64,000 nucleotides of DNA, from assembly GCA_963731265.1 (NCBI GenBank), contig CAVSUE010000002.1:1-64000 (forward strand), in the 5' to 3' direction. This document shows, one piece after another, positions 16,316 through 61,692 of this stretch (the first letter of the stretch is position 1; each line of letters starts with the position of its first letter). The position numbers were made by a program, and so were the translations under genes. The notes under the pieces were generated by a model. It was not told the origin of the DNA, did not search any database, and saw only the letters and a program-made list of their open reading frames with translations. The stretch is from an uncultured Verrucomicrobiae bacterium. Its GTDB lineage: Bacteria; Chlamydiota; Chlamydiia; Chlamydiales; Rhabdochlamydiaceae.

Positions 16316-16756
16316 TTACGAAACTCCCTCATCGAAATTGGAAATCAGCCGATTTAAATAGCTCTCTTGATATTTTTTAAGGTCGTCGACATGGACCACC
16401 CATGCTGAACCTTTTCTAGTCGCTTTTAAGAGGCCGATCCTTGTTGCATAGTAGATCTTTTGGTAGGGAACATTCAACATCTTGGACGCTTGCTGAATGG
16501 AATAGAAACCTTTCTTATTATCGAAAATCAACTCGCCGTTATGCATGGACTTCGTCCGTGAGTATTTTAACTTCCGATAACGCTCGAGATCTTCAATGTC
16601 TATAATCCAACGCGTTGGATTTTTATAAGCGCGCAGCTTTTTCTGTTTGATCGCGACATAGATAGCCTGCCGCGTCACGTCGTTGATTTTTGCAGCTTCG
16701 GAAAGCGTTACAAATTTCTTTCCAGCTGGAAGTTCTTCTTCTCTGTGTTCGCTCAT
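16316..16756 (-). CDS. euo: EUO-family transcriptional regulator, second paralog
   Basis: Two HTH-17-like repeats (EAAKINDVTRQAIYVAIKQKKL; KMLNVPYQKIYYATRIG) and KYSRTKS...GELIFDNKKG, typical of chlamydial EUO. Confidence 0.85.
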   Translation of the reverse strand: MSEHREEELPAGKKFVTLSEAAKINDVTRQAIYVAIKQKKLRAYKNPTRWIIDIEDLERYRKLKYSRTKSMHNGELIFDNKKGFYSIQQASKMLNVPYQKIYYATRIGLLKATRKGSAWVVHVDDLKKYQESYLNRLISNFDEGVS

Positions 16757-17589: not shown

Positions 17590-18042
17590 TTAAATAGCCT
17601 CAGAGCGCTGGGCTTTTTTACTCAGGTATGTTTCCTGGTATAGTTTCACATCGCTAACGTGAACGACCCAAGCAGCTCCTTTACGGTGCGCTTTCATCAA
17701 ACCTACACGCGTAGCGTAGTAGATTTTCTGTGCGGGCACATTCAACATTTTTGCGACCTGATTGACTGAAAAGAAGCCTTTGTGGTTATCAAAAAGAAGC
17801 TCACCATTGAACATTGACTTAGTCCGAGAATACTTTTGCTTACGGTAATTCTCTAGATCTTCTAAATCAATTGTCCAACGTGTAGCATCTTTTGAAGCCT
17901 TGAGCTTCTTTTGCTTAATGGCAACGTAGATCGCTTGACGAGTGACGTTATTTATTTTCGCCGCCTCTGTAATCGAAACTACCTTTTTGCCAGGTGAAGA
18001 TGCTATAGCATTCTCACCAAGTTGGCTGGTTTCTTTTTCCAT
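17590..18042 (-). CDS. euo: EUO, chlamydial early-upstream-ORF repressor of late genes
   Basis: VSITEAAKINNVTRQAIYVAIKQKKLKA...KYSRTKSMFNGELLFDNHKG...VPAQKIYYATRVG; near recJ, secDF and gltX as in other chlamydiae. Confidence 0.9.
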   Translation of the reverse strand: MEKETSQLGENAIASSPGKKVVSITEAAKINNVTRQAIYVAIKQKKLKASKDATRWTIDLEDLENYRKQKYSRTKSMFNGELLFDNHKGFFSVNQVAKMLNVPAQKIYYATRVGLMKAHRKGAAWVVHVSDVKLYQETYLSKKAQRSEAI

Positions 18043-40292: not shown

Positions 40293-40422
40293 AATTGCAT
40301 AACTCTTTGCCGCGTACAATCGCCTTTGATACCTCAGCCCGGTTCGCTTCAGCTCACCTGCTTTGCACTGCGCAGGTCCACCGGACCTTCTCGTGTTTTC
40401 GGCGGCGTGTCGTTTGCAAATT
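40293..40422. repeat. Intergenic repeat of the GGTTCGC...AGGTCCACCGGAC family
   Basis: Shares GGTTCGCnnnAGCTCACyTGC and AGGTCCACCGGACyTTCTCG with 50012-50062. Confidence 0.6.
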
Positions 40423-47965: not shown

Positions 47966-48576
47966 AAGTTAAGAAAATTGCTGTAACCGGTGGGTTAGCA
48001 GCGGGTAAGACTACAGTCTGCCAAATCTTTAAAGAGCTCGGCGCCTCCGTCATAAGCGCTGATGAAGTAGTCCACCAATTATTATCTCCAGGAACTGCTG
48101 TTGGTCAACAGGTCGTAAGTCTACTCGGTTCAGACATCATTAGCGGTCAACAATTCGATCGAAAAAAGATCGCCGCTAAAGTGTTTTCTCAACCAGACCT
48201 TCTGAGCGCACTGGAAGAAATCATCCATCCGGCTGTATTTAATGAAATTGAGCGAAAATATCAGCAGATCGTTCGAGAAAAAAAACACCCCCTGTTTGTG
48301 GCTGAAGTCCCTCTTCTTTTCGAAGCAAAAGAACAGTGGCGATTTGATGCTATCGTCAGCGTCCTCGCCGATCCTGAACTTTGCAAAAAACGGTTTGTTC
48401 TACAAACGGATCAATCCATGGATGAATTTGAAAAACGGATGATAAGACAAATGACGCCCACAGAAAAAGCCCGCCAAGCCCATTTGACGATTGATAACAG
48501 CGGCGATATAGAGCAACTCAAAACACAAGTTAAAATTATTTACTCTCAACTAACTCAGGAGTCTGATTTTCAATGA
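47959..48576 (+). CDS. coaE: Dephospho-CoA kinase
   Basis: [32 protein letters not shown]. Confidence 0.92.
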
Positions 48577-49919
48577 ATCAAGAAGACACTGTTCAAGATG
48601 TTCAAGAACCCGATCATGACAAGACCCCAAAAGGGCCAACGGATAGACCCCCACCGACTGAAAAAGTGACGAAAATTGCCGATCTGCAGCGTATGAACGT
48701 CGATCAGCTCAATCATTTTGCGCGCAATCTCGGCTTGAAAAATCTCGGCGCCCTTGCCAAGTCGCAAATTGTCTTCGAAATTGTTAAATACCTCTCTGAA
48801 AGACCCGAAGAGGTTCTTGTCGGCGAAGGGGTCCTGGAAGTCCTGCCCGACGGTTTTGGCTTTCTACGTTCTCCGAACTACAATTATCTCCCTTCCGCGG
48901 AAGACATTTACGTTTCCCCAGCTCAAATCCGCCGCTTTGACTTGAAAAAAGGGGACACAGTGTACGGGACGATCCGCTCTCCCAAAGAAAAGGAAAAGTA
49001 CTTCGCCCTGCTGAAAGTTGAGAAAATCAACAACACGCATCCCGATAAGGCCCGAGATCGAGTTCTTTTCGAAAACTTGACCCCGCTTTATCCAAGCTCT
49101 CGATTGGTGATGGAGACGACCAAAGACAGGATGACCACCAGGGTCTTGGATCTCACCTCTCCGATCGGTAAAGGGCAGAGAGCTCTCATCGTCGCTCCTC
49201 CCCGCTCAGGAAAAACGATCATCATGCAGCACATCGCCAATGCGATTGCGGTTAATCATCCTGAGGTTGTCCTGATCGTCTTGCTGATCGACGAGCGTCC
49301 GGAAGAAGTCACGGACATGATCCGCAGCGTCAAAGGGGAAGTCGTCTCGTCAACTTTTGACGAGCCACCCGAAAGGCACTGCCAAGTCGCCGAAATGGCG
49401 ATCGAAAAGGCACGCCGCCTTGTCGAATACGGCCACGACGTAGTCATCCTCCTCGACAACTTAACCCGATTGGCCCGCGCCTACAATACCGTTCAGCCCC
49501 ATTCAGGGAAAATCCTGTCCGGCGGTGTCGATGCCGGAGCGCTGCATAAACCGAAACGCTTTTTCGGCGCTGCACGCAATATCGAAGAAGGTGGCTCCCT
49601 CACGATCATCGCTACCGCATTGATCGATACGGGGTCCCGTATGGACGAGGTCATCTTCGAAGAGTTCAAGGGAACAGGCAACATGGAGCTTGTTCTCGAT
49701 CGAAGGCTCGCCGAACGTCGCGTATGGCCTGCCATCGATATCATGAAGAGCGGCACCCGCAAAGAAGAGCTCCTCTACCACCCCGATGAGCTCGAAAAGG
49801 TCTACATGATGCGGCAAGCCTTGGCAGATCTCTCTCCGCTCGATGCGATGAACCTCCTCATCGGCCGTCTCAAGAAGACCAACAACAACGTCGAGTTCCT
49901 GCTCGCAATGAAGGATTAA
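48573..49919 (+). CDS. rho: Transcription termination factor Rho
   Basis: [58 protein letters not shown]. Confidence 0.97.
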
Positions 49920-49925
49920 TGAAAT

Positions 49926-49947
49926 GGCGCAGCAAAAAAACTGCGCC
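49926..49947 (+). terminator. Hairpin immediately downstream of rho
   Basis: GGCGCAG-caaaaaaa-CTGCGCC with only a weak U-tract. Confidence 0.4.
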
Positions 49948-49952
49948 TTAAT

Positions 49953-50142
49953 TACCCGCTGCATCAAAAAGGTGACAATTTGCTCGCTGCAGCTTTGCTA
50001 AATCAATCCAGGGTTCGCCTAAGCTCACTTGCCCCAGTGGGAAGGTCCACCGGACTTTCTCGCATTCTCCGCAGACCTTGCCCCCTTCGCATTGGCTGTG
50101 CCCCCGGAGACCCATCTTGCCACCTTTTTTCAGGCGCGGGTA
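49953..50142. mobile_element. MITE-like element carrying the AGGTCCACCGGAC motif
   Basis: Imperfect TIR TACCCGCTGCATCAAAAAGGTGACAA / TTGCCACCTTTTTTCAGGCGCGGGTA. Confidence 0.6.
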
Positions 50143-50147
50143 GATAA

Positions 50148-51002
50148 TTACGCTTTTGATTGAAAAAGTTGGGCATTGGCCAACCGTTTGGAAAAAGAGG
50201 GATGAAGGATGTCCAACCTATTGTCTCCAGAGGAGGATATATACCCCTTTTTTTCGGGTGGACACCATAGTCCCCCTTTTAACGATTTGAAATAATTCAT
50301 TCGATTCGAAAAGTAACTTATTGCTCCTCTATTTGTATTCAGAATTTTTAATGCTGTTTGATCTGCATCGGTTTCTCTGATTCGATGACCAAAATTTTCC
50401 AGAGGAGAAGCGAAGAATTCAATGACGGGAATAATCAATGGCGACAAGAAGATTGTTCCCAAAACTTCCGAGGCGAGAATGGAAGTCTTAAGCAAAGATT
50501 CTATTAAAAAATGATTGTGACTTACATGAGTCAATTCATGTGCTAGTGCAAAATCAATGTCTTCTCTTGGCCGACAAGCTATTTCTTTATTAATATAGAC
50601 AACTACTTCTTTTGAAAAAAATGTCCCCAAAGCGCCAGCCCCTTCTCGAGAGGGGAAGATCCTGATTTTCTTGTGTATAGCCATTCCCTTAGCTAATTCA
50701 TCAACGCGATCGATAATGTAATGTAAATTTTCCTTTGGCGGGACATTTCCGTCGAGATAACATAAAGGATCGTTCTCACTGTCAACCCTTGCATGGGTAA
50801 GTTCAAAACGGCTTTGGAAATCCTCGACCCGTTTCGCGGGATTCAGACAATAATAAAAACGTTTCGGAAGTGTAATTATTCTATTGAAGACTCCAAATAT
50901 AGAATTTGTAAAAGCATCCTTGAGATGTGGAAAATACTCATACCACAGTGAATCCAGTTTAGATTCCTGCGTAAAATTAATACTTGCAGCACTTGATACC
51001 AT
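50148..51002 (-). CDS. M48-like zinc metallopeptidase domain protein
   Basis: FALAHELTHV (HExxH), RETDADQTA, HPSFSKRL; Ser-rich N-terminus; AT-rich. Confidence 0.7.
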   Translation of the reverse strand: MVSSAASINFTQESKLDSLWYEYFPHLKDAFTNSIFGVFNRIITLPKRFYYCLNPAKRVEDFQSRFELTHARVDSENDPLCYLDGNVPPKENLHYIIDRVDELAKGMAIHKKIRIFPSREGAGALGTFFSKEVVVYINKEIACRPREDIDFALAHELTHVSHNHFLIESLLKTSILASEVLGTIFLSPLIIPVIEFFASPLENFGHRIRETDADQTALKILNTNRGAISYFSNRMNYFKSLKGGLWCPPEKKGYISSSGDNRLDILHPSFSKRLANAQLFQSKA

Positions 51003-51140
51003 ATTTCTTCTCCTGGGTATTTTGAACAGGATATTTTTTATCTACAGACATTTAAAATCAATATTAATCCACACAAACTAATTCTTGTGCAAATCGATGG
51101 GTTTGATATGCAATCAGATTATCGCTCGTTTTATATGAAT

Positions 51141-51348
51141 CGAACGTCGCGTATGGCCCGCCATCGATATCATGAAGAGCGGCACCCGCAAAGAAGAGCT
51201 CCTCTACCACCCCGATGAGCTCGAAAAGGTCTACCTCATGCGGCAAGCCTTGGGAGATCTCTCTCCGCTCAATGCGATGAACCTCTTGATCCGCCGTCTC
51301 AATAAGACCAACAACAACCTCGAGTTCCTGCTCGCGACGAAGGATTAA
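51141..51348 (+). pseudogene. rho: Degenerate duplicate of the last 208 bp of rho
   Basis: Aligns without gaps to 49712-49919 with 12 mismatches (manual count) and ends at the same TAA; in-frame TGA just upstream. Confidence 0.92.
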
Positions 51349-51611
51349 ACAATTCACATGTCGGGGACAAAGCACTTCGTGTCTTTGGCCTCCGTCCTGG
51401 TTCGCCTAAAAGCTCTCCTGCAAGAACTGGAAGTGGTCTAGGATTCTAGGATGAGGTCGTACACCCCTCCCAAGCCAATGGAGGTATATTGAAATCACTA
51501 AAAGTAACTTAGAAGACTATTTTCTTTGGTTAAAATATACCCTTATGGTACATCTAAATCATGGATAAACTACCTTTTCAAATATGATTAACGCATTGGA
51601 TGTACCATACC

Positions 51612-52415
51612 ATGGATGAGTTGGCAGGGTTGGGCAAATTATCTCGCAAGAGACTTTCAGACGTGCTTCGCAATTCAAAAGGTTGTATATCAGTAAGTTT
51701 GGTAGCAGAAACATTAAACGTCTCAAGAGAGCGGGCAAGGCTATACCTGTCCTCATGGGCAAAAAATGGCTGGCTGCGAAGAGTCAGGCGGGGACTATAT
51801 TTCCCAGTAGATGTAGCTGCTGAAACTCCCGACGGCGGCCTCCTCGATCCATGGGTAATAGCCTCTCAAATCTTTTCTCCTTGCTATATCGGGGGGTGGT
51901 CTGCTGCCCAGCATTGGGGTCTCACCGAACAGATTTTCGAATCGACCATCGTCTTTACATCTCGACGCCTAAATCAGAAAGAACAGTCCGTTGCAGGATT
52001 AGCATTTTTGATAAAGAAAACAGCGCCCGACAAAATGTTTGGACTCAAGACCATCTGGAAAGATCAAGCGAAAGTACAAGTATCCGATCCTCACAAAACG
52101 ATCACAGATATGTTGGATGATCCTTCCATTGGAGGAGGGATTCGTTCTGTAATTGATTTTTTCCAGCAATATCTATCCTCAAACAATTGCGATTTAAACA
52201 TGCTAACTCAATATGCAGACAACATGAAAAACAAGACAATATTCAAAAGACTAGGATTTATTTTATCAAAAATAAAACCAAAAGAAGCCAATTGGATTAC
52301 ATATTGTCTAGAACGTCTTAGCGAAGGAAATTCACAATTAGATCCTTCATCCAAGGGGGAGCGTCTCATCAAAAAATGGAAATTATGGATTCCTGAGGGA
52401 TTTAATGATCAATAA
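51612..52415 (+). CDS. Type IV toxin-antitoxin antitoxin, AbiEi family (N-terminal wHTH)
   Basis: GWLRRVRRGLY, PCYIGGWSAAQHWGLTEQ, VSDPHKTITDMLDDP, KRLGFIL; overlaps the downstream nucleotidyltransferase. Confidence 0.85.
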   Translation: MDELAGLGKLSRKRLSDVLRNSKGCISVSLVAETLNVSRERARLYLSSWAKNGWLRRVRRGLYFPVDVAAETPDGGLLDPWVIASQIFSPCYIGGWSAAQHWGLTEQIFESTIVFTSRRLNQKEQSVAGLAFLIKKTAPDKMFGLKTIWKDQAKVQVSDPHKTITDMLDDPSIGGGIRSVIDFFQQYLSSNNCDLNMLTQYADNMKNKTIFKRLGFILSKIKPKEANWITYCLERLSEGNSQLDPSSKGERLIKKWKLWIPEGFNDQ

Positions 52416-53121
52416 ATTCGAAATTTCACGAAAAGCAAAAGAGTTTGGATTACAATCTTCTACCATCGAGAAAGATTATGTTTTGGGATGGATGCTGATC
52501 GGCATCCTAAATCATCCTCAAACGAGGGATTCATGGGTTTTTAAAGGTGGCACATGCCTTAAAAAATGCTTTTTTAATCGGTACCGATTTTCGGAAGATT
52601 TGGACTTCACTCTGCTGGATTCTCAGCAAATAAAAGAACAGATACTCAGGCCTATCTTAGAAGAGATCGCGCAATGGGTCTATGAGCAGTCAGGGATTGA
52701 AATTCCTGAAAATCTGATCTCCTTAGACCCTCATCGCAGCCTGTCAGTGCAAGGCAAGCTATCGTACCGAGGTCCTTTGAAACAGCCCGTTCCCTATCCT
52801 TCTATTAAACTTGATCTTACAGCTAATGAAAAAATTGTGCTCAAGCCTGAAAAGCGAGCGGTTTTTCATGACTATTCTGATCGGCCGAGCATTGAACCAC
52901 AAATTTTGAGCTATTCGTATGAAGAGATTTTTGCCGAGAAACTGCGTGCTCTTGCGGAACGGGCTCGTCCTCGGGATCTGTATGATATCATTCATCTTTA
53001 TCAAGATCGACATCGCCTTACCGATATAGCCAAACTCTTAGAGTCGCTCAAAGGCAAATGCGCCTTTAAAAAAATGCCAATGCCGATGAAGAAAAACTCA
53101 AAGCGATGCTTGCGGAAATGA
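52405..53121 (+). CDS. Type IV TA toxin, AbiEii/AbiGii nucleotidyltransferase (probably C-terminally truncated)
   Basis: IEKDYVLGW, FKGGTCLKK, YRFSEDLDFT, EEIFAEKLRAL, RPRDLYD. Confidence 0.85.
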   Translation: MINKFEISRKAKEFGLQSSTIEKDYVLGWMLIGILNHPQTRDSWVFKGGTCLKKCFFNRYRFSEDLDFTLLDSQQIKEQILRPILEEIAQWVYEQSGIEIPENLISLDPHRSLSVQGKLSYRGPLKQPVPYPSIKLDLTANEKIVLKPEKRAVFHDYSDRPSIEPQILSYSYEEIFAEKLRALAERARPRDLYDIIHLYQDRHRLTDIAKLLESLKGKCAFKKMPMPMKKNSKRCLRK

Positions 53122-53768
53122 AGAAAGCGTGCCAAACGCTTCCCCCTTCTATGCAGCAATCGATGCAAAAGAACTTTGCGGAGTGGGAAGCTCAGTTTTT
53201 TAAGCAGTATAAGGCCAAGAAGCCTACGGATCAGGAGAAGATTCAATCCGGAATGTATCTATGCGCTTTGTATTTCAGGGTGGAGGCTCTCATGTTCCAC
53301 GCTGGACTGAGCAGTAAGGCTCAGCTGACCTGGTTGAAATTTCATACAGGGGTGAAAGAGCATCTTACAGAGGTTTTACCCAAGCAACGTCCTGCAGAAC
53401 CGTTTATTGCCCAATACCGACAAAGGGAGCTCGATAAAAAATATCTCGTTCAGATTGGAAAGATGAAGGAGTTTTTTCAACAGCTGCGGGATCAATTGTA
53501 TCTACAAGGCAACACCATCAATGATGAATTGATGACGGGATTTAATACCATTCAGAATGAGATGATCGAGGTCCAAGAGGCGACGAATCTTTCGACGGAG
53601 CAAGTTTACCAGGGGATGGAGGCGCTGACAAAGAGTGTGACGCACCTCTTCCTCGAATATCGGGAACACATGAAAGAGATGAAAGGGATTGCCGACTTAT
53701 TGCAGCTCCATGGAATTACTTTGGAGCAAACTTTAAAGGATGCGGAAAGGGTCTTAAACAAGGTTTAA
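53106..53768 (+). CDS. Helical/coiled-coil hypothetical protein (possibly 5'-truncated)
   Basis: 220-aa ORF rich in Q/E/K/L; the frame stays open upstream to ~53070 without a start codon. Confidence 0.6.
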   Translation: MLAEMKKACQTLPPSMQQSMQKNFAEWEAQFFKQYKAKKPTDQEKIQSGMYLCALYFRVEALMFHAGLSSKAQLTWLKFHTGVKEHLTEVLPKQRPAEPFIAQYRQRELDKKYLVQIGKMKEFFQQLRDQLYLQGNTINDELMTGFNTIQNEMIEVQEATNLSTEQVYQGMEALTKSVTHLFLEYREHMKEMKGIADLLQLHGITLEQTLKDAERVLNKV

Positions 53769-53770
53769 AT

Positions 53771-54274
53771 ATGTTTCCAGTGGATCCCGATATTTTTCGA
53801 GTCGATCTTCAGAACGACATCGCGTATCACATGGCCCGCGAAGAGGGATACTCTCCTCAAGAAGCGCTGAAAAATGAGCTTAACAAAGAAATGGAAGAGT
53901 ACGCCGCTGAACAGGCAGAAATTGAGGAGGCGTTGCTCCAAAGAATAGAGAGTGTCGTGGGCGTCCTTACCTCGATGCTTCAAGCGATGCAGCAAAATGA
54001 TCCCAATGGCCCCGCGCGCAACCAGCTCGACCACCTGACGCACTCCATTCTTGAGCTGGAAGAGGCAAAAGCAGGAAGTGAAAGCGACCTTTTGCAAGCA
54101 AAAAACCTCTTAAGCACCATGAAAAGACAATATGCCATCCTGAAAGGAAAATTTGAACAGCTGAAACAGAAACACGAGAGAGCCACGCGGGAAGATCCGT
54201 TAAATTCTTTTGTGACCGACGCGGGCGCCCGCATATGCAGATCGATCTCTGTCCATTCGTCCAGGAGAAATTAA
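53771..54274 (+). CDS. Coiled-coil hypothetical protein
   Basis: 167 aa, E/Q/L-rich heptads, 2 bp after the previous stop. Confidence 0.65.
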   Translation: MFPVDPDIFRVDLQNDIAYHMAREEGYSPQEALKNELNKEMEEYAAEQAEIEEALLQRIESVVGVLTSMLQAMQQNDPNGPARNQLDHLTHSILELEEAKAGSESDLLQAKNLLSTMKRQYAILKGKFEQLKQKHERATREDPLNSFVTDAGARICRSISVHSSRRN

Positions 54275-55275
54275 TGGCTATTCCGCCCGTACAACCCTCG
54301 GTCAATCCGGGGCAATTTAACCCGACTGCCGATTCATTTGTTCTTCGAAGAAGAATTCAAGCTGAACTCGCAGAGATCCGCGACGAATTGCAACAATCCC
54401 ATTTAACAGAGCGCAATGTGGGGCCCGTTGCGGACCTCATTGCGGTTTGGCTCGAGGAGTTTCAGCGGTTTGTGAGACCTCCTGTGCGCGGTGAGGTCAT
54501 GCCCGATCTCAACGAGGCGATTCGTCTTTATAAGGGGCAGCTTGAAAATCTCCTTGCAGACCCGATCCACATCGAAAGGCCCTATCCTCCCCAGCTCTTT
54601 GGAGAACTCCCCCCTCGTATTGTGCGGTTCATGGTCGCCAAAGCAACTAATCCCAATTCTGTTCTTTTTTCACAGCGCATCTATGACGCAAAACCCTCTC
54701 CACCTGCGCCTCCTATCATCCCTGAAAATATCGAAGAACAATTGCGCATGCTCAATGCCCTGCGAGCGCAACGCCTCCGGGAAGAAGAGCAGCAGATGCC
54801 GGGGATTCAAGAGCTGATGAGCAAGCTTCGGCAAATGGAAGCGCGCCAAAACGAAAATTTGGCGGCAATCGGCGAACGCTTCCGTGCGGCTATTGCCCCT
54901 CTTGCCGCTGCCATCAAACAGATGGAAGCCGATGTGCCACGCCAAAAAGAAAAACTTTTTTCTGCTGTCAGGCGCCAGCAGGAAAGGCAGGAAGAATTGA
55001 AAAAAAATCTTGTGGTTTTGCAAAGAGAACGTCGGCAGGTGCGCACAGAGATTGATGAGCAGAGCAAGGCCGATCTCGACTTGCGGATCTCAACGAATCG
55101 CCTTGAGCAATCCATCGAACAGAAAAAACAGGAATACTCTGAGTCTCTTTTAAAGAGTGCAGTGCTATTGGCACTTTCTATAGGAGTGACTTGGGCTGTA
55201 TCTTCCTATTATCCCGGAACAAGCATCCACTTTATGAATCCCAAATACCCTGTTTCACTCAACTTCGTCTTTTAA
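54274..55275 (+). CDS. Coiled-coil protein with a single C-terminal hydrophobic segment
   Basis: Start at ATG 54274 (TAATG overlap, AGGAG upstream); long heptad region followed by SAVLLALSIGVTWAVSSYY. Confidence 0.7.
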   Translation: MAIPPVQPSVNPGQFNPTADSFVLRRRIQAELAEIRDELQQSHLTERNVGPVADLIAVWLEEFQRFVRPPVRGEVMPDLNEAIRLYKGQLENLLADPIHIERPYPPQLFGELPPRIVRFMVAKATNPNSVLFSQRIYDAKPSPPAPPIIPENIEEQLRMLNALRAQRLREEEQQMPGIQELMSKLRQMEARQNENLAAIGERFRAAIAPLAAAIKQMEADVPRQKEKLFSAVRRQQERQEELKKNLVVLQRERRQVRTEIDEQSKADLDLRISTNRLEQSIEQKKQEYSESLLKSAVLLALSIGVTWAVSSYYPGTSIHFMNPKYPVSLNFVF

Positions 55276-55288
55276 CTGGAGAATCCTT

Positions 55289-56674
55289 ATGACACAACCC
55301 ATCCGTACGTTCTACATCGATTCCCAGCCCGTGGACCTCTCCACGCTTGCAGCCTCTTCACAATCTCCCAGAGACCAAATTGAGGCATTTGAAAAAGATT
55401 CGTTGTCGCGAGCGGATCATCAACCCCTTCACAAGCAAGGCACTTATAAGAACCAAGTGCGCGCATTTGTTAACGATCTGCGAGCGCAGCTCGAACGGAT
55501 GAGAGCTTTAAACCTCGATACGCTGCAGATCTGTTCAGAAATGCGCAGCCACATCGAAAAGTACAACTTGGCCTTAAATGCGCTCTATACCCACAGCGGG
55601 GAATATGAGCGGGGCAAAGAAGGCTCTTTAGCACACAACGCAGCCCTTGCGAGTCAAATCCGTGGAACCAGCTTTCAGTTTACTTCCTTTACTCCCTCCT
55701 CAAAATCCACTCCCCTTTCACGCCGCCAAGTCTTGGCTAAAGACTTACAGGAGATGGATATGCGGGATCATTTGTTGGATGTTCAGGTCGCCGGAAATCT
55801 CGTGAAGGCAACAGGGGAAGCCGTTGTGGGTGCGGCAAAAGCTGCCTGCTCTGTGACCGAAACCAGCAAGCAAGCCTGTAAGAGCACTTTGGATCTCGCT
55901 GGCAAGGCTGGAAAAGCAGTGCTGGATGCAACAGGCACAAAAGAGATTGTTAAGCAAGCCATCGGCTACTTGCAAACATGTGAAGGGACGACACTGGCAG
56001 AGGTGTTGGTGGAGCAATACGGATATGCTCCAGAGGAAGCTAAAGAGATAGCGAAACAATATGTGAAGAATGTGGGAGTGCTCGCCACTGCAACGGTGGG
56101 TTATGGTGCCCAATCGCTTGCTCTCAAAGGAGTCAAGCAATTACTCCAAAAGGGCGGGGCGGCAGAGGCCTCTGCAGCAGCATCCCCTGTCGTTGAAAAG
56201 ACTGCGAAAGCGGCCCCTTCCCGTTTGCCGCAGGTTCCCTTGAATGTTGTTTTATCACGTGATGATGTCACTATCCTTTCCCCTCCTCCACCGGCCTACT
56301 TCAAAAGTAGAATCATTACTGAACGGACGAAGATAGTTCCCGAAGATATTGGCATGAACTCAACTTTATTTACCGAAAAATTTTACGTGTTGGATGGATG
56401 GATGACCCGAGGAACAAATGCGACATTCAAAATTGAAGTCGATTTACTTTTTGTGACTAAAGGCCGTTTGTCTAATATCTTGACGGTCATGGATCACTTT
56501 AAAGAAATCGCAAAAACAAATCAGGCTTCAATACTACAACTTAATACTCTAATCATTAATGACGATTTGCTGCGTGTACTGACTAAGCGGTATGGAAATC
56601 CCTCCATCGAATTAAAAACAGGTTATAATGAACAAATCAAATATCAGGTTTTTAAAATTCCAATAAATAACTAA
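55289..56674 (+). CDS. Hypothetical protein with helical N-domain, Ala/Pro linker and distinct AT-rich C-terminal domain
   Basis: GGAG RBS; N-terminus paralogous to 56750-57529. Confidence 0.7.
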   Translation: MTQPIRTFYIDSQPVDLSTLAASSQSPRDQIEAFEKDSLSRADHQPLHKQGTYKNQVRAFVNDLRAQLERMRALNLDTLQICSEMRSHIEKYNLALNALYTHSGEYERGKEGSLAHNAALASQIRGTSFQFTSFTPSSKSTPLSRRQVLAKDLQEMDMRDHLLDVQVAGNLVKATGEAVVGAAKAACSVTETSKQACKSTLDLAGKAGKAVLDATGTKEIVKQAIGYLQTCEGTTLAEVLVEQYGYAPEEAKEIAKQYVKNVGVLATATVGYGAQSLALKGVKQLLQKGGAAEASAAASPVVEKTAKAAPSRLPQVPLNVVLSRDDVTILSPPPPAYFKSRIITERTKIVPEDIGMNSTLFTEKFYVLDGWMTRGTNATFKIEVDLLFVTKGRLSNILTVMDHFKEIAKTNQASILQLNTLIINDDLLRVLTKRYGNPSIELKTGYNEQIKYQVFKIPINN

Positions 56675-56749
56675 GAGAGTCTCTCCGATTTTGTTTGAGA
56701 ATCACACAGGAACCCTTTTAAACTATTTCGCAACCCAAGGAGCTTTTTT

Positions 56750-57529
56750 ATGACAGCATCTCTATCACCCTCTACAGGTAGAATTGAGTTTCCAATTCTA
56801 GAAATTTCTCAGGCAATCACTCCTCTACTTGCAGTGAAGGAACAGATTGAACTCGCTGAAATAGATTGGCTTGCAAAAGCAGACAAACTTCCTCAAGGAA
56901 TGCGGGTACATTGTAAATCGCAAATTCGCGCTTTTGTCGATCAATTGCGTGCAGATGTAAATGAAATGCTCCGTTTGAAGAAAGACTTTGCTCATATTGC
57001 AACTTTCATCAATGCAGGGATTGAAAAGTTTGAGGCCTCTTGGCAGTCGCTTCAAACGCATAACGCCGAGTATGAGCGCGATAAACGAAAAGTACATGAA
57101 GGCAATAGTGGATTATCTGCATCGCTTCGGCAAATGGGTGTCGATCTTGCTCCCTTTGCACCGAAAAAACCTTCAGAGAGTCCCAAAGAAGCAAAGATAA
57201 CGAATATACAAATGGATGCAAAAGACCCACCACGCCATCAAATGGCAAAAATTGTGTTCTCACAAATTGCTAAAGCGGAAGAAAGCTGGTTAAACAAAGG
57301 GAAGTCTTTTGATGGGGAAAAGAAAGAAGCCTACTACCAACAGGTTCGATTTCAGGTTATTCAGTTGGAATTGGAAGCTAAAAGCGGTCTGGAGACAAAG
57401 AGGTGTCTTGACCATATTCTATATCCTGTTGAAAGGCTTCGAAAAGTCTTTGACGCCGCTTTAACGCAAAGATACCCACAGAATGTAACTGCGTCGCCCT
57501 TGCAGGAAGAATTAAACTTCCCGTGGTGA
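56750..57529 (+). CDS. Hypothetical protein, paralog of the 55289 N-domain, with an internal repeat
   Basis: AAGGAG RBS; QIRAFVDQLRA vs QVRAFVNDLRA; THNAEYERDK vs THSGEYERGK. Confidence 0.7.
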   Translation: MTASLSPSTGRIEFPILEISQAITPLLAVKEQIELAEIDWLAKADKLPQGMRVHCKSQIRAFVDQLRADVNEMLRLKKDFAHIATFINAGIEKFEASWQSLQTHNAEYERDKRKVHEGNSGLSASLRQMGVDLAPFAPKKPSESPKEAKITNIQMDAKDPPRHQMAKIVFSQIAKAEESWLNKGKSFDGEKKEAYYQQVRFQVIQLELEAKSGLETKRCLDHILYPVERLRKVFDAALTQRYPQNVTASPLQEELNFPW

Positions 57530-57681
57530 TTAAATTTGGGGTACTGTTACGCGCTCAAATGCAACTTATTTTCGAAGATTTGTATTATAATCGAAATTAA
57601 CCTGATATACCGCTTGTATCAATCATCATCTAGTTTTTTCCTTTTGCTGCCATCGGGGCATTAGAAATGCCTTCTGAATTG

Positions 57682-57737
57682 GAGTGTTGACCCCCCCTCC
57701 CCTTTAGGCGAGGGAGGTTCAAAGGCTTTCAGCACTC
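57682..57737. repeat. IS200/IS605-end-like or REP-like hairpin
   Basis: TTGACCCCCCCTCCCCTTTAGGCGAGGGAGGTTCAA, flanked by GAGTGTTGA / TCAGCACTC. Confidence 0.4.
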
Positions 57738-57816
57738 TTTGCTATGCATTTGGATATTGACGAACAACTTGGCAGTAAGCGATGGTATCCAGAGTATCCT
57801 TAATAACGAGGGTTAG

Positions 57817-58215
57817 ATGGTATACGTCAATCTTGAGGCAGCTGTAAAGCAAGAAAATTCTTCTAATTGCATTGCGTATGAATACCCGATGCAAAATTCC
57901 GAGATAAATGTTGCTCTTGTAGAAATCACTCACAGATATCCAGATTAAGGTTATGCCATTAATCACAAATCTAGTGAAATAGGTTATATTCTTAAGGGGT
58001 CGGGAAAACTTTTTACAGAGACTGCTAAAGTTGTCCTTTCATGCGGCGACGTTGTCTATATTCCACGGGGAGAAAAATATTATTGGGAAGGAAATATGAT
58101 CCTTGTAGTTTCTTCTACACCTGCCTGGCATCCCGAACAGCATCAGGTCAATCTGCCTGCAGGCGAAGCGCCCATTCCATTGCGACCTACGCCTTCCTGC
58201 ACTCAAAGTGTTTAA
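57817..58215 (+). pseudogene. Cupin-domain protein with an in-frame stop
   Basis: MVYVNLEAAVKQENSSNCIAYEYPMQNSEINVALVEITHRYPD*GYAINHKSSEIGYILKGSGKL...LSCGDVVYIPRGEKYYWEG...PAWHPEQH; TAA at 57946-57948. Confidence 0.75.
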
Positions 58216-58294
58216 TATCAATCGCAGTAAATAACTTAACAAAATCGACGCGATGGCAAAAACTGGCGCAGTAAAAACTGGGTCATTTTTACAA

Positions 58295-59878
58295 TTAGAG
58301 GGAATGCAGATAGTAAAGAATCATTTTAGCGCGCTTGGCATTGTCGCACTGTCTTTCAACTTTTAACTCTGGGCTTGCATAAAAAGATGCCGCGCCAAAA
58401 TCGCCTGCAAAATTACGCGGACAGTCAAAATGCCGCCAAACACAATTATAAATGTTCTGTTTGTATGATGGATCTAATTGTCCGAATAGTTGCAACCCCT
58501 TTTCCGATTCCCCATTCTTAAAGGCCTCGACAATAGGATTGAGAAGCTGCTCTTTTTTCCTCTGCTCTTCTGAAAGCGGGAGGATAAATTTCGGAGGAGC
58601 GAAAACAGATTCGATTCCATCAACAAGCCGCTCGTAATCAGCTTCAAATTTAGAGGCTACGGCACGAAGGATAGCTGCTTTTTGTCGGGAGTTGCAGCGA
58701 TATTGAGGATCAAGGCTTGGATGACCATGAAAAGCGGCGCACCCGAAATCCGCATGCGGAGGAGGAAGCTCTTTGTTCTTCCAAGTTTGTTGCCAAGTTT
58801 CATGGTACGCAGAATTTTTAAAACTATCGAAAAGTTGATCAAAAATTTTGTCCGCCTCAGGACTGCCGCTTTCATAACTCTCAGCAGCATCCAGAAGAGA
58901 TTTCATGATCACTGGGCAGCTCATTCTCAAATTTTGAAAAGCTTCATTCACTGTTGACGCGTTGTTAAAAGCTCCCCACATCAGATTCTTTCGATCCACA
59001 ATAAAAAATTCATTGAACAGGACCTGTTTAGCAATAAGGACACGATCCTTCAGCTTTGCTACAAGCCAAAAACTAGAGAAAAGCGCATTTTCATTGATCC
59101 CAATGTGAGCATTGTTTGGGGAAAGACCGGTTCTTCCATCTTTTGGATGGCAGATGACAGGTAATTCTTTTTGGTGATGAAAACTGATTCCAGAAGGTGT
59201 TTGGATAGGATAAACACCCTCGGGCTCATACACTCCTATGTCAACCATTTCGGTGGAATCTTTGCCTTTTTCATAACAAGGATGGGCCCAGCCATGCAAC
59301 ATCAGGTTGAACACATGCGGAAGTTTTTTTTCTTTTACATGTTGTCTCAAACCGCTCGTGGTTTCAGCAGAAAGGAAAAACTCAAATTTTTTTTCCCTAA
59401 CATCGCCTGCCGCATTCCGAACCGATTCAGGAAAGTTCGCCATTTGCGCCGGATGAAGACGCAGTGTGGCAACATCAAGAGAGACTTGATAATAAGTTTC
59501 TCCATAATGGCCCATCTGGGGCCTTTCGAGACGAAAATTAACTCCGTTGTAAAAAGCAGAGGGAAGTTCTGAACAAATTAAATTCGCTTGGCCACGTTCA
59601 ATCGGTTGCGACAACCATTCTAGAGAAAGTTGTCTCGCTTTACATTCTTGCAGAGTTCTTGAGGAAATTTCGACAAGGCGCTCAGCGTCTTTTTTCGCTT
59701 CCGCAGACAACGCAGAATTGGAAACGGTGAGATGCTTTTGCACAAACTGACTGACCTCAGCTTCAAAGCCGTTTAATACGCTGACGCTTAAGGGGTTATA
59801 TCGACTCTCTGGAGTTTTCAACACAGAGATAATCGACGATGTCGTTGAAGAACTCGAACTAGAAACAATTTGAGTCAT
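58295..59878 (-). CDS. Hypothetical protein with Ser-rich N-terminus and two C-terminal repeats, candidate effector
   Basis: Likely start ATG 59878 (MTQIVSSSSSSTTSS); AT-rich upstream region; repeated F.QL..S.K...Y...W...DFG.A.F motif. Confidence 0.75.
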   Translation of the reverse strand: MTQIVSSSSSSTTSSIISVLKTPESRYNPLSVSVLNGFEAEVSQFVQKHLTVSNSALSAEAKKDAERLVEISSRTLQECKARQLSLEWLSQPIERGQANLICSELPSAFYNGVNFRLERPQMGHYGETYYQVSLDVATLRLHPAQMANFPESVRNAAGDVREKKFEFFLSAETTSGLRQHVKEKKLPHVFNLMLHGWAHPCYEKGKDSTEMVDIGVYEPEGVYPIQTPSGISFHHQKELPVICHPKDGRTGLSPNNAHIGINENALFSSFWLVAKLKDRVLIAKQVLFNEFFIVDRKNLMWGAFNNASTVNEAFQNLRMSCPVIMKSLLDAAESYESGSPEADKIFDQLFDSFKNSAYHETWQQTWKNKELPPPHADFGCAAFHGHPSLDPQYRCNSRQKAAILRAVASKFEADYERLVDGIESVFAPPKFILPLSEEQRKKEQLLNPIVEAFKNGESEKGLQLFGQLDPSYKQNIYNCVWRHFDCPRNFAGDFGAASFYASPELKVERQCDNAKRAKMILYYLHSL

Positions 59879-60075
59879 AGTAATCCAATTTTTATTTAAT
59901 ATAATTATAACCACAAATTTCATTATTAGCAACAAAAAAAACGCACATTTATTTTTATATCGGATTTCAATGGATGGTGAAATGCGCAGCATTTTAGAAA
60001 AACTGAACCGGATCTTTATTATTTACAAATATTCTTAGGTTTACCTATGTTGACAAACCGGTTGTTTTTTGGAGG

Positions 60076-61692
60076 ATGTTTATGAGAAGGTTGATCCCGA
60101 TTTTGTTTGCAGTCCTCGCCTTGCTCGGAGCTTCCTGCCAAAAGAAAGTCATCACCGCCCCGGCGCAAACGCAATGCATTCACCTGAATCTAAAGAATGA
60201 ACCCGCCACTCTGGATCCGCGTAAAGGGGGAGATGTCATTTCTTCGCATATGCACTTTCTGCTCTTCGAGGGTCTCGTCAAATTAAATCCCGACAACTCG
60301 ATTACTTCCGCGCAGGCAAAGACTTTTGATATTTCTAAAGATGGAACCATTTATACTTTCGTCTTGAGAGATTCTTTGTGGTCGGATGGAGCGCCGGTCA
60401 CGGCGTTTGATTTTGAAAAAGCATGGAAGGATATTCTCGATCCTTCCTTCCCCAGTCTCAATGCCCACCTGCTTTATCCTATCAAAAATGCGGAAGCCGC
60501 CAAAAAAGGAAAAGTCCCTTTGTGCGAAGTGGGCGTCGCCGCTAAAGACGATAAAACTTTGGTCATCACTTTAGAAAAGCCTACCCCTTATTTTCTGGAT
60601 CTCATCGCTTTTTGCGTCTTTTTCCCTGTTAACCGTCAAAACGATGAACGCTACCCTGATTGGGCGCATCATGCAGGGGAGCACTATGTTTGCAATGGGC
60701 CGTTCATTTTGAAAGAATGGAGACACAACAATGAGATCGTTGTCGAAAAAAACCCGTTGTACTGGGATCAAACCCGAGTCATTCCCGACCTGATTCATTT
60801 CAGCATGATCGACAATGAGATGACCACTTTGCAAATGTTTGAAAATGGACAACTCGACATGATCGGCGAGCCGTTATCCCCTTTGCCTGTCGATGCTTTG
60901 CCGACGCTCAAGAAAAAAGGGCGGGTCATGCGGCATCCTGTCGGAGGAACGACGATGATCACTTTCAATGTCGATAAAGCCCCATTTAATAACGTAAAAA
61001 TCCGGAAAGCTTTTGCGTATGCTATCGATCGGGAATCCATTGTTAAAAATATCACTCAGATGGGAGAAACGCCCGCATTGAACGCGGTGCCCCCCGTTTT
61101 GAAAAACAACCGCAATCATGCTTTTTTTAAAGATGCGGACTATTCGCAAGCTAAGGCACTGTTGGAAGAGGGCATGAAAGAAATGGGGATCACCAGAGAG
61201 GCCTTCAAAGATGTGACTTATTTTTATAGCACAACTGAACTTAACCATAAAATTGCACAGGCTGTCCAGCAGCAATGGTTCCATGCCTTAGGCTTAAGGA
61301 TAAAAATTGAAAATCTCGATCATAAAGTTTTGATGGATAAGTTGATTAAACGGAATTATTCCTTCGCGCAAAGCCTCTGGCTTGCTCAATACAACGACCA
61401 GATGAATATCCTCGAGCGTTTTAAAATCAAGGCAAACGCAAAGAATTATCCGAATTGGGAGAACGAAGAATATATCCGCCTGCTCGAAGCCTCTTTCTAT
61501 GAAAATGGGCTCAAACGTTTTGAAATTTTAGAAAAAGCGGAAGGAATTTTCTTAAGCGAAATGCCCATCTGCCCGATCTATCACTGGGAAATGCCTTACA
61601 TTGTACAACCTCATTTAGGTGAGGTTGGAATGACCCCCGTTGGCGATCTCGTTTTTGAAAAACTCTCTATTGAAAATAGGAAGCGCTTATGA
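60076..61692 (+). CDS. oppA: Oligopeptide ABC transporter substrate-binding lipoprotein
   Basis: Lipobox GAS-C, EPATLDPR, LFEGLV, WSDGAPVTAFDF, NGPFILKEW, RKAFAYAIDR. Confidence 0.9.
   Translation: MFMRRLIPILFAVLALLGASCQKKVITAPAQTQCIHLNLKNEPATLDPRKGGDVISSHMHFLLFEGLVKLNPDNSITSAQAKTFDISKDGTIYTFVLRDSLWSDGAPVTAFDFEKAWKDILDPSFPSLNAHLLYPIKNAEAAKKGKVPLCEVGVAAKDDKTLVITLEKPTPYFLDLIAFCVFFPVNRQNDERYPDWAHHAGEHYVCNGPFILKEWRHNNEIVVEKNPLYWDQTRVIPDLIHFSMIDNEMTTLQMFENGQLDMIGEPLSPLPVDALPTLKKKGRVMRHPVGGTTMITFNVDKAPFNNVKIRKAFAYAIDRESIVKNITQMGETPALNAVPPVLKNNRNHAFFKDADYSQAKALLEEGMKEMGITREAFKDVTYFYSTTELNHKIAQAVQQQWFHALGLRIKIENLDHKVLMDKLIKRNYSFAQSLWLAQYNDQMNILERFKIKANAKNYPNWENEEYIRLLEASFYENGLKRFEILEKAEGIFLSEMPICPIYHWEMPYIVQPHLGEVGMTPVGDLVFEKLSIENRKRL

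Follow-up and report, generated by a model that had tools for sequence, protein, structure and literature searches.

The window analysed here, 64 kb of contig CAVSUE010000002.1 (positions 1 to 64,000) from an uncultured bacterium of the Rhabdochlamydiaceae, carries an intact rho gene whose last 208 bp recur further downstream as a separate, orphan tail. The gene (48573..49919, forward strand) encodes 448 amino acids (aa) with the Rho_N, Rho_RNA_bind and ATPase domains of Pfam. Its product is 96% identical to P0006, the nearest Rho in the database, and the nearest named Rho proteins come from Rhabdochlamydiaceae and other Chlamydiota. Chlamydial hallmarks are found among the other open reading frames (ORFs) of the window, namely a CT441-type tail-specific protease, an NTP/NDP (nucleoside tri- and diphosphate) exchange transporter and a fused SecDF. 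The gene order leading up to rho is sppA-polA-coaE-rho, and the G+C content at third codon positions (GC3) of rho, 0.619, is the highest among the 47 ORFs of the window. On its 3' side, rho is followed by a hairpin, an inverted-repeat stretch, an M48-like peptidase gene, an AT-rich spacer of 138 nucleotides (nt), the orphan tail, an AbiEi/AbiEii gene pair, six ORFs without a family and an oppA-like gene at 60076.

The pair of tails was found by a repeat search of the window and by our own base-by-base comparison. The search returned a single family of two copies in direct orientation, 49712-49919 and 51141-51348 (both on the forward strand), which are 208 nt long, 94% identical and spaced 1429 nt apart. 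Copy 1 is the working end of rho, comprising codons 381-448 and the TAA stop codon, and has the conserved residues A418, D424, G431, K434 and M446, whereas copy 2 is an orphan 3' fragment, annotated here as a pseudogene. Direct comparison revealed 12 mismatches, no insertions or deletions, and TAA at the end of both copies, and an earlier note on this DNA, which reported 208 bp, a distance of 1.43 kb and the same counts, was therefore correct in its description of the repeat. As the sequences flanking the two copies (39 nt on the left, 60 nt on the right) are not similar to each other, both edges of the repeat are sharp. The left edge of copy 2 is a novel joint (51140/51141) to mid-rho sequence, and the right edge coincides with the last base of TAA. 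In blastn searches inside the window the two tails match each other with an E-value (E) of 1.9e-90, and when the whole Rho protein was used as a tblastn query against the window, 51142-51345 was the sole extra match. Neither blastn nor tblastn within the window detected a third tail copy or a decayed remnant at E <= 10, including near oppA. The mismatches, located at positions 19, 95, 97, 114, 131, 146, 148, 152, 163, 179, 196 and 198 of the repeat, are spread unevenly: one falls within the first 94 nt and the other 11 within the last 114 nt (permutation P about 0.05). This asymmetry may mark a tract of gene conversion or a region where a crossover once took place.

Ten codons differ between the tails, three of them synonymously and seven by replacement (M412L, A418G, D424N, G431R, K434N, V440L and M446T). 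Residue frequencies were scored in the 120 nearest Rho proteins. N424, R431, N434, L440 and T446 of the orphan are each found in 0 out of 120 and G418 in 1, and wherever the orphan has one of these six residues, the working tail has the common one. The ratio of nonsynonymous to synonymous substitution rates (dN/dS) between the tails is 0.66 (Nei-Gojobori); against orthologues, the same tails give proportions of nonsynonymous differences (pN) of 0.11-0.19 and of synonymous differences (pS) of 0.69-0.89. The ratio and the pattern of rare residues imply that constraint was lost in one copy. Judged from its sequence, the orphan is a dead, drifting pseudogene fragment, cut off from translation by a stop codon: an in-frame TGA (51136-51138) lies one codon ahead of copy 2, and the sole start codon inside the fragment is an ATG at 51172, which gives an ORF of 58 aa. 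For annotators, the 58-aa 'Rho-like' ORF at this place should thus be regarded as a pseudogene fragment.

The decay of copy 2 also bears on the possibility that the duplication is an assembly artefact, with two contigs or strain variants joined through a common rho tail. The lineage looks uncultured or poorly sampled (the Rho of the nearest genome representative is 83% identical), and the left edge of copy 2 is abrupt. By contrast, five copy-2 residues that are absent from all 120 relatives point to real pseudogene evolution and not to a working allele of a co-occurring strain. Moreover, the exact 58-aa orphan ORF (P0127) is recorded on three contigs, the longest of 339 kb, although these may represent the same reads passed through different pipelines. 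We consider an artefact highly improbable.

The ancestry of the two tails can be followed through a few informative positions. V410 is present in 4 and I430 in 20 of the 120 nearest Rho proteins, and the two occur together in only 1, yet both tails carry the pair. P0006, the 96% identical protein, differs from the working tail exactly at positions 410, 412 and 430. A natural Rho fragment from another assembly, P0126 (92 aa, encoded on a contig of 1337 bp), is the same as the working tail save for L412, which is the state of the orphan. Since P0126 differs from copy 1 solely by this orphan-state residue, it equals the inferred common ancestor of the tails, and since that ancestor the working tail has acquired one private replacement and the orphan six. 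On the residues that they share, the two tails are sisters, although later gene conversion between the copies may blur their ancestry, weaken the sister argument and mask a separate origin. At position 412, L is found in 52 and M in 17 of the 120 relatives. Because L is the commoner state, the CTC/ATG difference more plausibly arose by a change in the working copy, and the CTC codon need not be foreign, contrary to what had been supposed. Nor do the multi-base codon changes, previously taken as a sign of a distinct allele, require one: finding two double-hit codons in a set of 12 changes is nothing unusual (about 0.64 are expected by our own Poisson estimate). Thus, from the earlier suggestion of a distinct allele that later decayed, the decay is upheld by the five residues unseen in relatives and by the dN/dS value, whereas the distinct allele is not supported, given the shared V410 and I430 and the identity of P0126 with the ancestor.

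To place the duplication in context, 80 related loci were compared; the source genome is not among them, only about five are chlamydial, and their nearest Rho is 83% identical. The nearest locus, L001, reads mscS-sppA-polA-coaE-rho-oppA, and 90 nt separate rho from oppA; in the window the oppA homologue lies 10.1 kb downstream. Two further loci, L002 (9258-10094) and L006 (792-1628), share a 279-aa ORF directly after rho, which has no Pfam family and is 64% identical between them, so that the downstream neighbour of rho is stable in that sub-lineage. In L003 and L004, the genes behind rho are unrelated ones encoded on the opposite strand. In total, four different rho neighbours are found among five chlamydial loci, and the comparison of L001-L004 and L006 indicates that polA-coaE-rho is conserved while the sequence behind rho is variable. 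Within the fetched flanks, the surroundings of rho in all 80 loci lack a second tail of the gene as well as M48-like and AbiE genes, and the rho-oppA spacer of L001 has no residual homology to the window spacers above that of shuffled sequences. The earlier note had pointed to the content behind rho in relatives as a check on its proposal of capture, possibly repeated, at this site, and had considered that sister tails together with uniform cargo would speak against it. The cargo behind rho does vary, yet the tails are sisters, and recurrence is not borne out, given just two tail copies in the window and a second tail in 0 out of 80 related loci.

Collectively, the arrangement can be read not as an active mobile element but as the fixed scar of one old rearrangement in the variable rho-oppA interval, in which a single one-ended recombination brought together two alternative segments from behind rho; for this reading belief and doubt are, in our judgement, evenly balanced. 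Segment X would correspond to 49920-51140, with the hairpin, the inverted-repeat element and the M48-like gene, and segment Y to 51349 onward, with AbiEi/AbiEii and further ORFs, the two now standing in series. The incoming DNA fragment would have begun inside rho at codon 381 and shared homology at one end only, whereby the last 208 bp of rho would have been doubled. Such an event could take two forms: either a circularised fragment containing the tail and X underwent a single crossover in the resident tail, or a linear fragment recombined through homology at one end while its other end was joined illegitimately, as in homology-facilitated illegitimate recombination. It could also have two mirror versions. 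In one, X (the M48 cassette) would have arrived, anchored in rho; in the other, the tail together with Y (the AbiE block) would have arrived, anchored downstream, for example in oppA, with the rho tail a mere passenger at the end of the fragment. These versions are equally possible; how the recombination proceeded, and whether X or Y came in later, is inferred. Selection would presumably have spared only those products in which rho remained whole. An edge at the stop codon is expected from a joining of this kind, because the two haplotypes share the rho coding sequence but differ behind it.

The same edge is informative with respect to duplication without any incoming DNA. A simple tandem duplication can be excluded, since the sequence after copy 2 does not repeat that after copy 1; the two post-copy sequences have just a motif of 21-23 nt in common. 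More generally, template switching during repair or replication might have put 208 bp of rho as filler at the M48-AbiE junction by internal copy-and-paste. Such a process would account for sister tails, for the presence of just two copies and for the lack of mobility genes, and it needs no donor. However, the copied piece would have to end on the last base of the stop codon by luck, roughly a 1 in 200 event by our own estimate, and in its simplest form, the tandem duplication, the process is already excluded by the differing sequences behind the copies. We regard internal copying as rather unlikely. Returning to the joining of two segments, the original proposal of single-crossover capture via the rho tail holds in part: a one-ended or single crossover is the best available mechanism, but the rho tail need not be the anchor, and capture is plausible, though unproven.

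Several points weigh against a joining of X and Y. No donor or intermediate haplotype, with rho followed by X only or by Y only, has been seen, and the event itself is undocumented. As the tails are sisters, the donor would have been conspecific or the same genome. A conspecific donor sits uneasily with the non-coding DNA after the stop codon, which has only the 21-23-nt motif in common, and an earlier event that placed X or Y exactly at the stop codon is needed. Furthermore, the 1-versus-11 skew of mismatches (P about 0.05) is not predicted by plain neutral decay and may mean gene conversion. Finally, natural DNA uptake or recombination of this kind is not established for this organism, and P0126 is a short protein (92 aa) on a contig of 1337 bp.

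Duplicated 3' ends are also left by site-specific integrative elements that insert at the end of a gene and supply a replacement tail of their own, as e14 and phage 21 do at icd; at rho, the integrase would since have been lost or would act in trans. Indeed, direct repeats of the gene 3' end flank foreign-looking DNA while the gene is intact, and the layout matches icd/icdC as described for e14 (PMC13626634). Over its first 94 nt the repeat has just 1 mismatch, near-identity of the kind that a crossover or core region would show, and an addiction-type module, AbiE, adjoins the orphan. The e14 element is a 15-kb prophage with its own integrase, whose integration into icd of E. coli leaves the 3' pseudogene icdC and which excises on SOS induction; there, as at rho, a housekeeping gene remains functional with its 3' end present twice, and the displaced end lies beyond the inserted DNA (PMC13626634). 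At rho, however, the bracketed DNA amounts to just 1.2 kb, a recombinase is missing from the frames scanned, and the gene's present tail has no separate ancestry, with V410 and I430 in both tails and P0126 equal to their ancestor. Among the 109 stop-to-stop frames with a length of 45 aa or more in 49920-60075, 47 were scanned for recombinases (those left out were short or already scanned), and no integrase, transposase or excisionase domain of Pfam was detected at E <= 0.05, in line with the earlier observation that no integrase is visible. Likewise, no recombinase family of NCBIfam was found among the ORFs between rho and oppA, and no transfer RNA (tRNA), transfer-messenger RNA (tmRNA) or Rfam family in the region of 47-61 kb. 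Additional evidence against an integrative element comes from the absence of a second tail in the 80 related loci and from the M48-like protein, which is unmatched in 72,556 plasmid records (tblastn) and in PHROGs, where the family-less ORFs have no match either. Thus, an element of the e14/icd type fits the geometry but fails for want of an integrase in the frames scanned and of a separate tail ancestry, and we consider it unlikely. Among the papers listed by a literature search, judged by titles and abstract openings, no report of rho as an attachment or integration site surfaced, which does not prove that there is none.

Elsewhere in the window, 32 kb from the repeat, two paralogous ORFs on the reverse strand (16316-16756 and 17590-18042) contain a helix-turn-helix of the excisionase family (NCBIfam TIGR01764; PHROG 66). 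They lie about 830 nt apart without a long ORF between them, and no recombinase stands beside them among the scanned ORFs.

Arrangements resembling the proposed joining of two rho-downstream segments are known from two integrase-free systems. For Rhs genes, a single crossover of a circle carrying a stretch of the gene together with new DNA has been proposed to shunt the old gene end downstream (Jackson et al. 2009, PMC2935791). As at rho, a complete Rhs gene has behind it a displaced 3' fragment whose first part is gene sequence (PMC2935791). Rhs tips differ from each other and encode toxins, they form arrays of many tips, and the process recurs, whereas at rho the tips are 94% identical versions of the same housekeeping tail, the single orphan is decaying, and the cargo is unrelated and on the other strand. 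Homology-facilitated illegitimate recombination, in turn, has been invoked for the effector-immunity arrays of type VI secretion systems (PMC5361080). There, as proposed here, variant or foreign DNA is attached through homology on one side and illegitimately on the other, and older genes move downstream without an integrase. Classical events of homology-facilitated illegitimate recombination, unlike the one considered here, usually remove DNA from the recipient and leave the anchor in a single copy.

If two segments were indeed joined, the locus would represent a clean natural case of gene-content change beside an indispensable gene without a dedicated recombinase. How chlamydia-like bacteria gain genes is poorly known. 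The duplicated tail would serve both as a clock and as a polarity marker, placing the event later than the split from the nearest sequenced relative, with a drift of the orphan of about 4-6%. Because the longest identical stretch lies in the first 94 nt, deletion between the copies would most often graft the whole decayed tail onto rho. Loss of the cargo via the repeat would then put a decayed tail on the gene, so that the insertion is presumably locked in, in effect, and the cargo may be hard to lose. In a broader form, which strikes us as decidedly doubtful, the rho-oppA interval would be an integrase-free capture site at which one-ended recombination stacks alternative cassettes of conspecific origin, with the decayed tail acting as a ratchet (deletion grafts up to six damaging substitutions on rho) and the cargo held hostage. 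Nothing here shows that rho is a recurrent target or that the locus represents a new class of mobile elements.

The cargo between the tails is an intact gene for an M48-like zinc peptidase (50148..51002, reverse strand), which is convergent with rho and encodes 284 aa with a HELTH motif. It matches Pfam Peptidase_M48 (PF01435) at E 4.2e-7 with 30.4 bits (cut-off 20.3), and 21 out of its 30 neighbours in the Atlas share the M48 family set. Its G+C content is 0.386 and its GC3 of 0.333 is the lowest of the 47 ORFs (z -2.2). Thus, both the earlier description of an AT-rich M48-like peptidase and the claim that the duplication brackets a compositionally odd gene are substantiated. The gene product has five word-sharing homologues at 51-99% identity and belongs to a small subfamily, with 60 representatives at E <= 1e-10 and 11 at E <= 1e-30 among 1.84 billion. 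HELTH is kept in five out of six aligned sequences of the M48-like subfamily. In P0005 the first histidine of HExxH is replaced by arginine, while the glutamate, the second histidine and the following HNH are invariant in the alignment of six sequences. The structure model of the cargo protein is poor (predicted local distance difference test score, pLDDT, of 52) and confident only at residues about 50-160. A Foldseek search with this model returned 0 PDB matches at E <= 0.001, the top weak ones being BlaR1, HtpX and BepA; given the low pLDDT and the lack of PDB matches, the model and the search serve only as a weak hint. In a blastn comparison of 49920-53200 with plasmids, the only match was a 79-nt piece of AbiEii to a Thermococcus plasmid.

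Directly after the rho stop codon, a GC-rich hairpin, GGCGCAG-loop-CTGCGCC (49926..49947), was predicted as a terminator-like site, and the same stem appears in the fold of the spacer. It is followed by a 200-nt element (49948..50147) that abuts the stop codon of the M48-like gene and is bounded by an imperfect inverted repeat, detected by the repeat search; the arms, of 31 nt, are terminal inverted repeats and represent a weak match, being 74% complementary. The spacer 49917-50150, which holds this element, folds better than shuffled sequences (z -4.1). The label of miniature inverted-repeat transposable element (MITE) had been attached to 49948-50147 in the earlier note and is kept here as putative; in the window, just an internal piece of about 53 nt recurs (40341-40393, 79%). 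That piece corresponds to a short dispersed repeat inside the element (50012..50062, forward strand), which begins GGTTCGCCTAAGCTCAC, and a partial copy of it lies 3' of the orphan tail (51399..51421, forward strand), as found by motif search and alignment. The sequence GGTTCGCCTAA at 50012 and 51399 starts 93 and 51 nt past the two stop codons, respectively, in agreement with the claim that the same GGTTCGC motif stands behind both copies. This 21-23-nt motif is the best local alignment of the two downstream spacers, and its score was reached by 1 in 300 shuffles. Written as GGTTCGC..AGCTCAC..GGTCCACCGGAC, the short dispersed repeat is intergenic and follows convergently oriented gene ends; two of its copies are fuller (79% identity) and one is partial, and none of the 80 related loci contains the motif. 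The AT-rich spacer upstream of the M48-like gene (51003..51140) ends on its right at the novel joint, and no sigma-70-like site was found in it.

Directly behind the orphan tail, AbiEi (51600-52415) and AbiEii (52405-53121), both on the forward strand, form an adjacent toxin-antitoxin or abortive-infection pair, which was recognized by Pfam and by PADLOC (E 1.4e-96 and 2.1e-99, respectively). AbiEii, of 238 aa, covers positions 1-233 of the 396-position PADLOC model and 6-189 of the 238-position Pfam model, overlaps the next ORF (53106) by 16 nt and may be a toxin with a shortened C-terminus. A 20-nt inverted pair (51023-51042 and 53433-53452, 90% complementary) flanks the orphan and the AbiE pair; with a blastn E of 0.023 within the window, we judged it to be probably a chance match. 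The rest of the lineage-specific block (53106..60075), up to oppA at 60076, contains the six ORFs without a family in the Pfam, NCBIfam and PADLOC scans, of which 58295-59992 has no usable Atlas match, and a small cupin fragment. The latter is an 88-aa stop-to-stop frame (57949-58212, forward strand) that matches the cupin family PF07883 at E 2e-7 in an otherwise ORF-poor gap and is possibly a gene remnant within the block.

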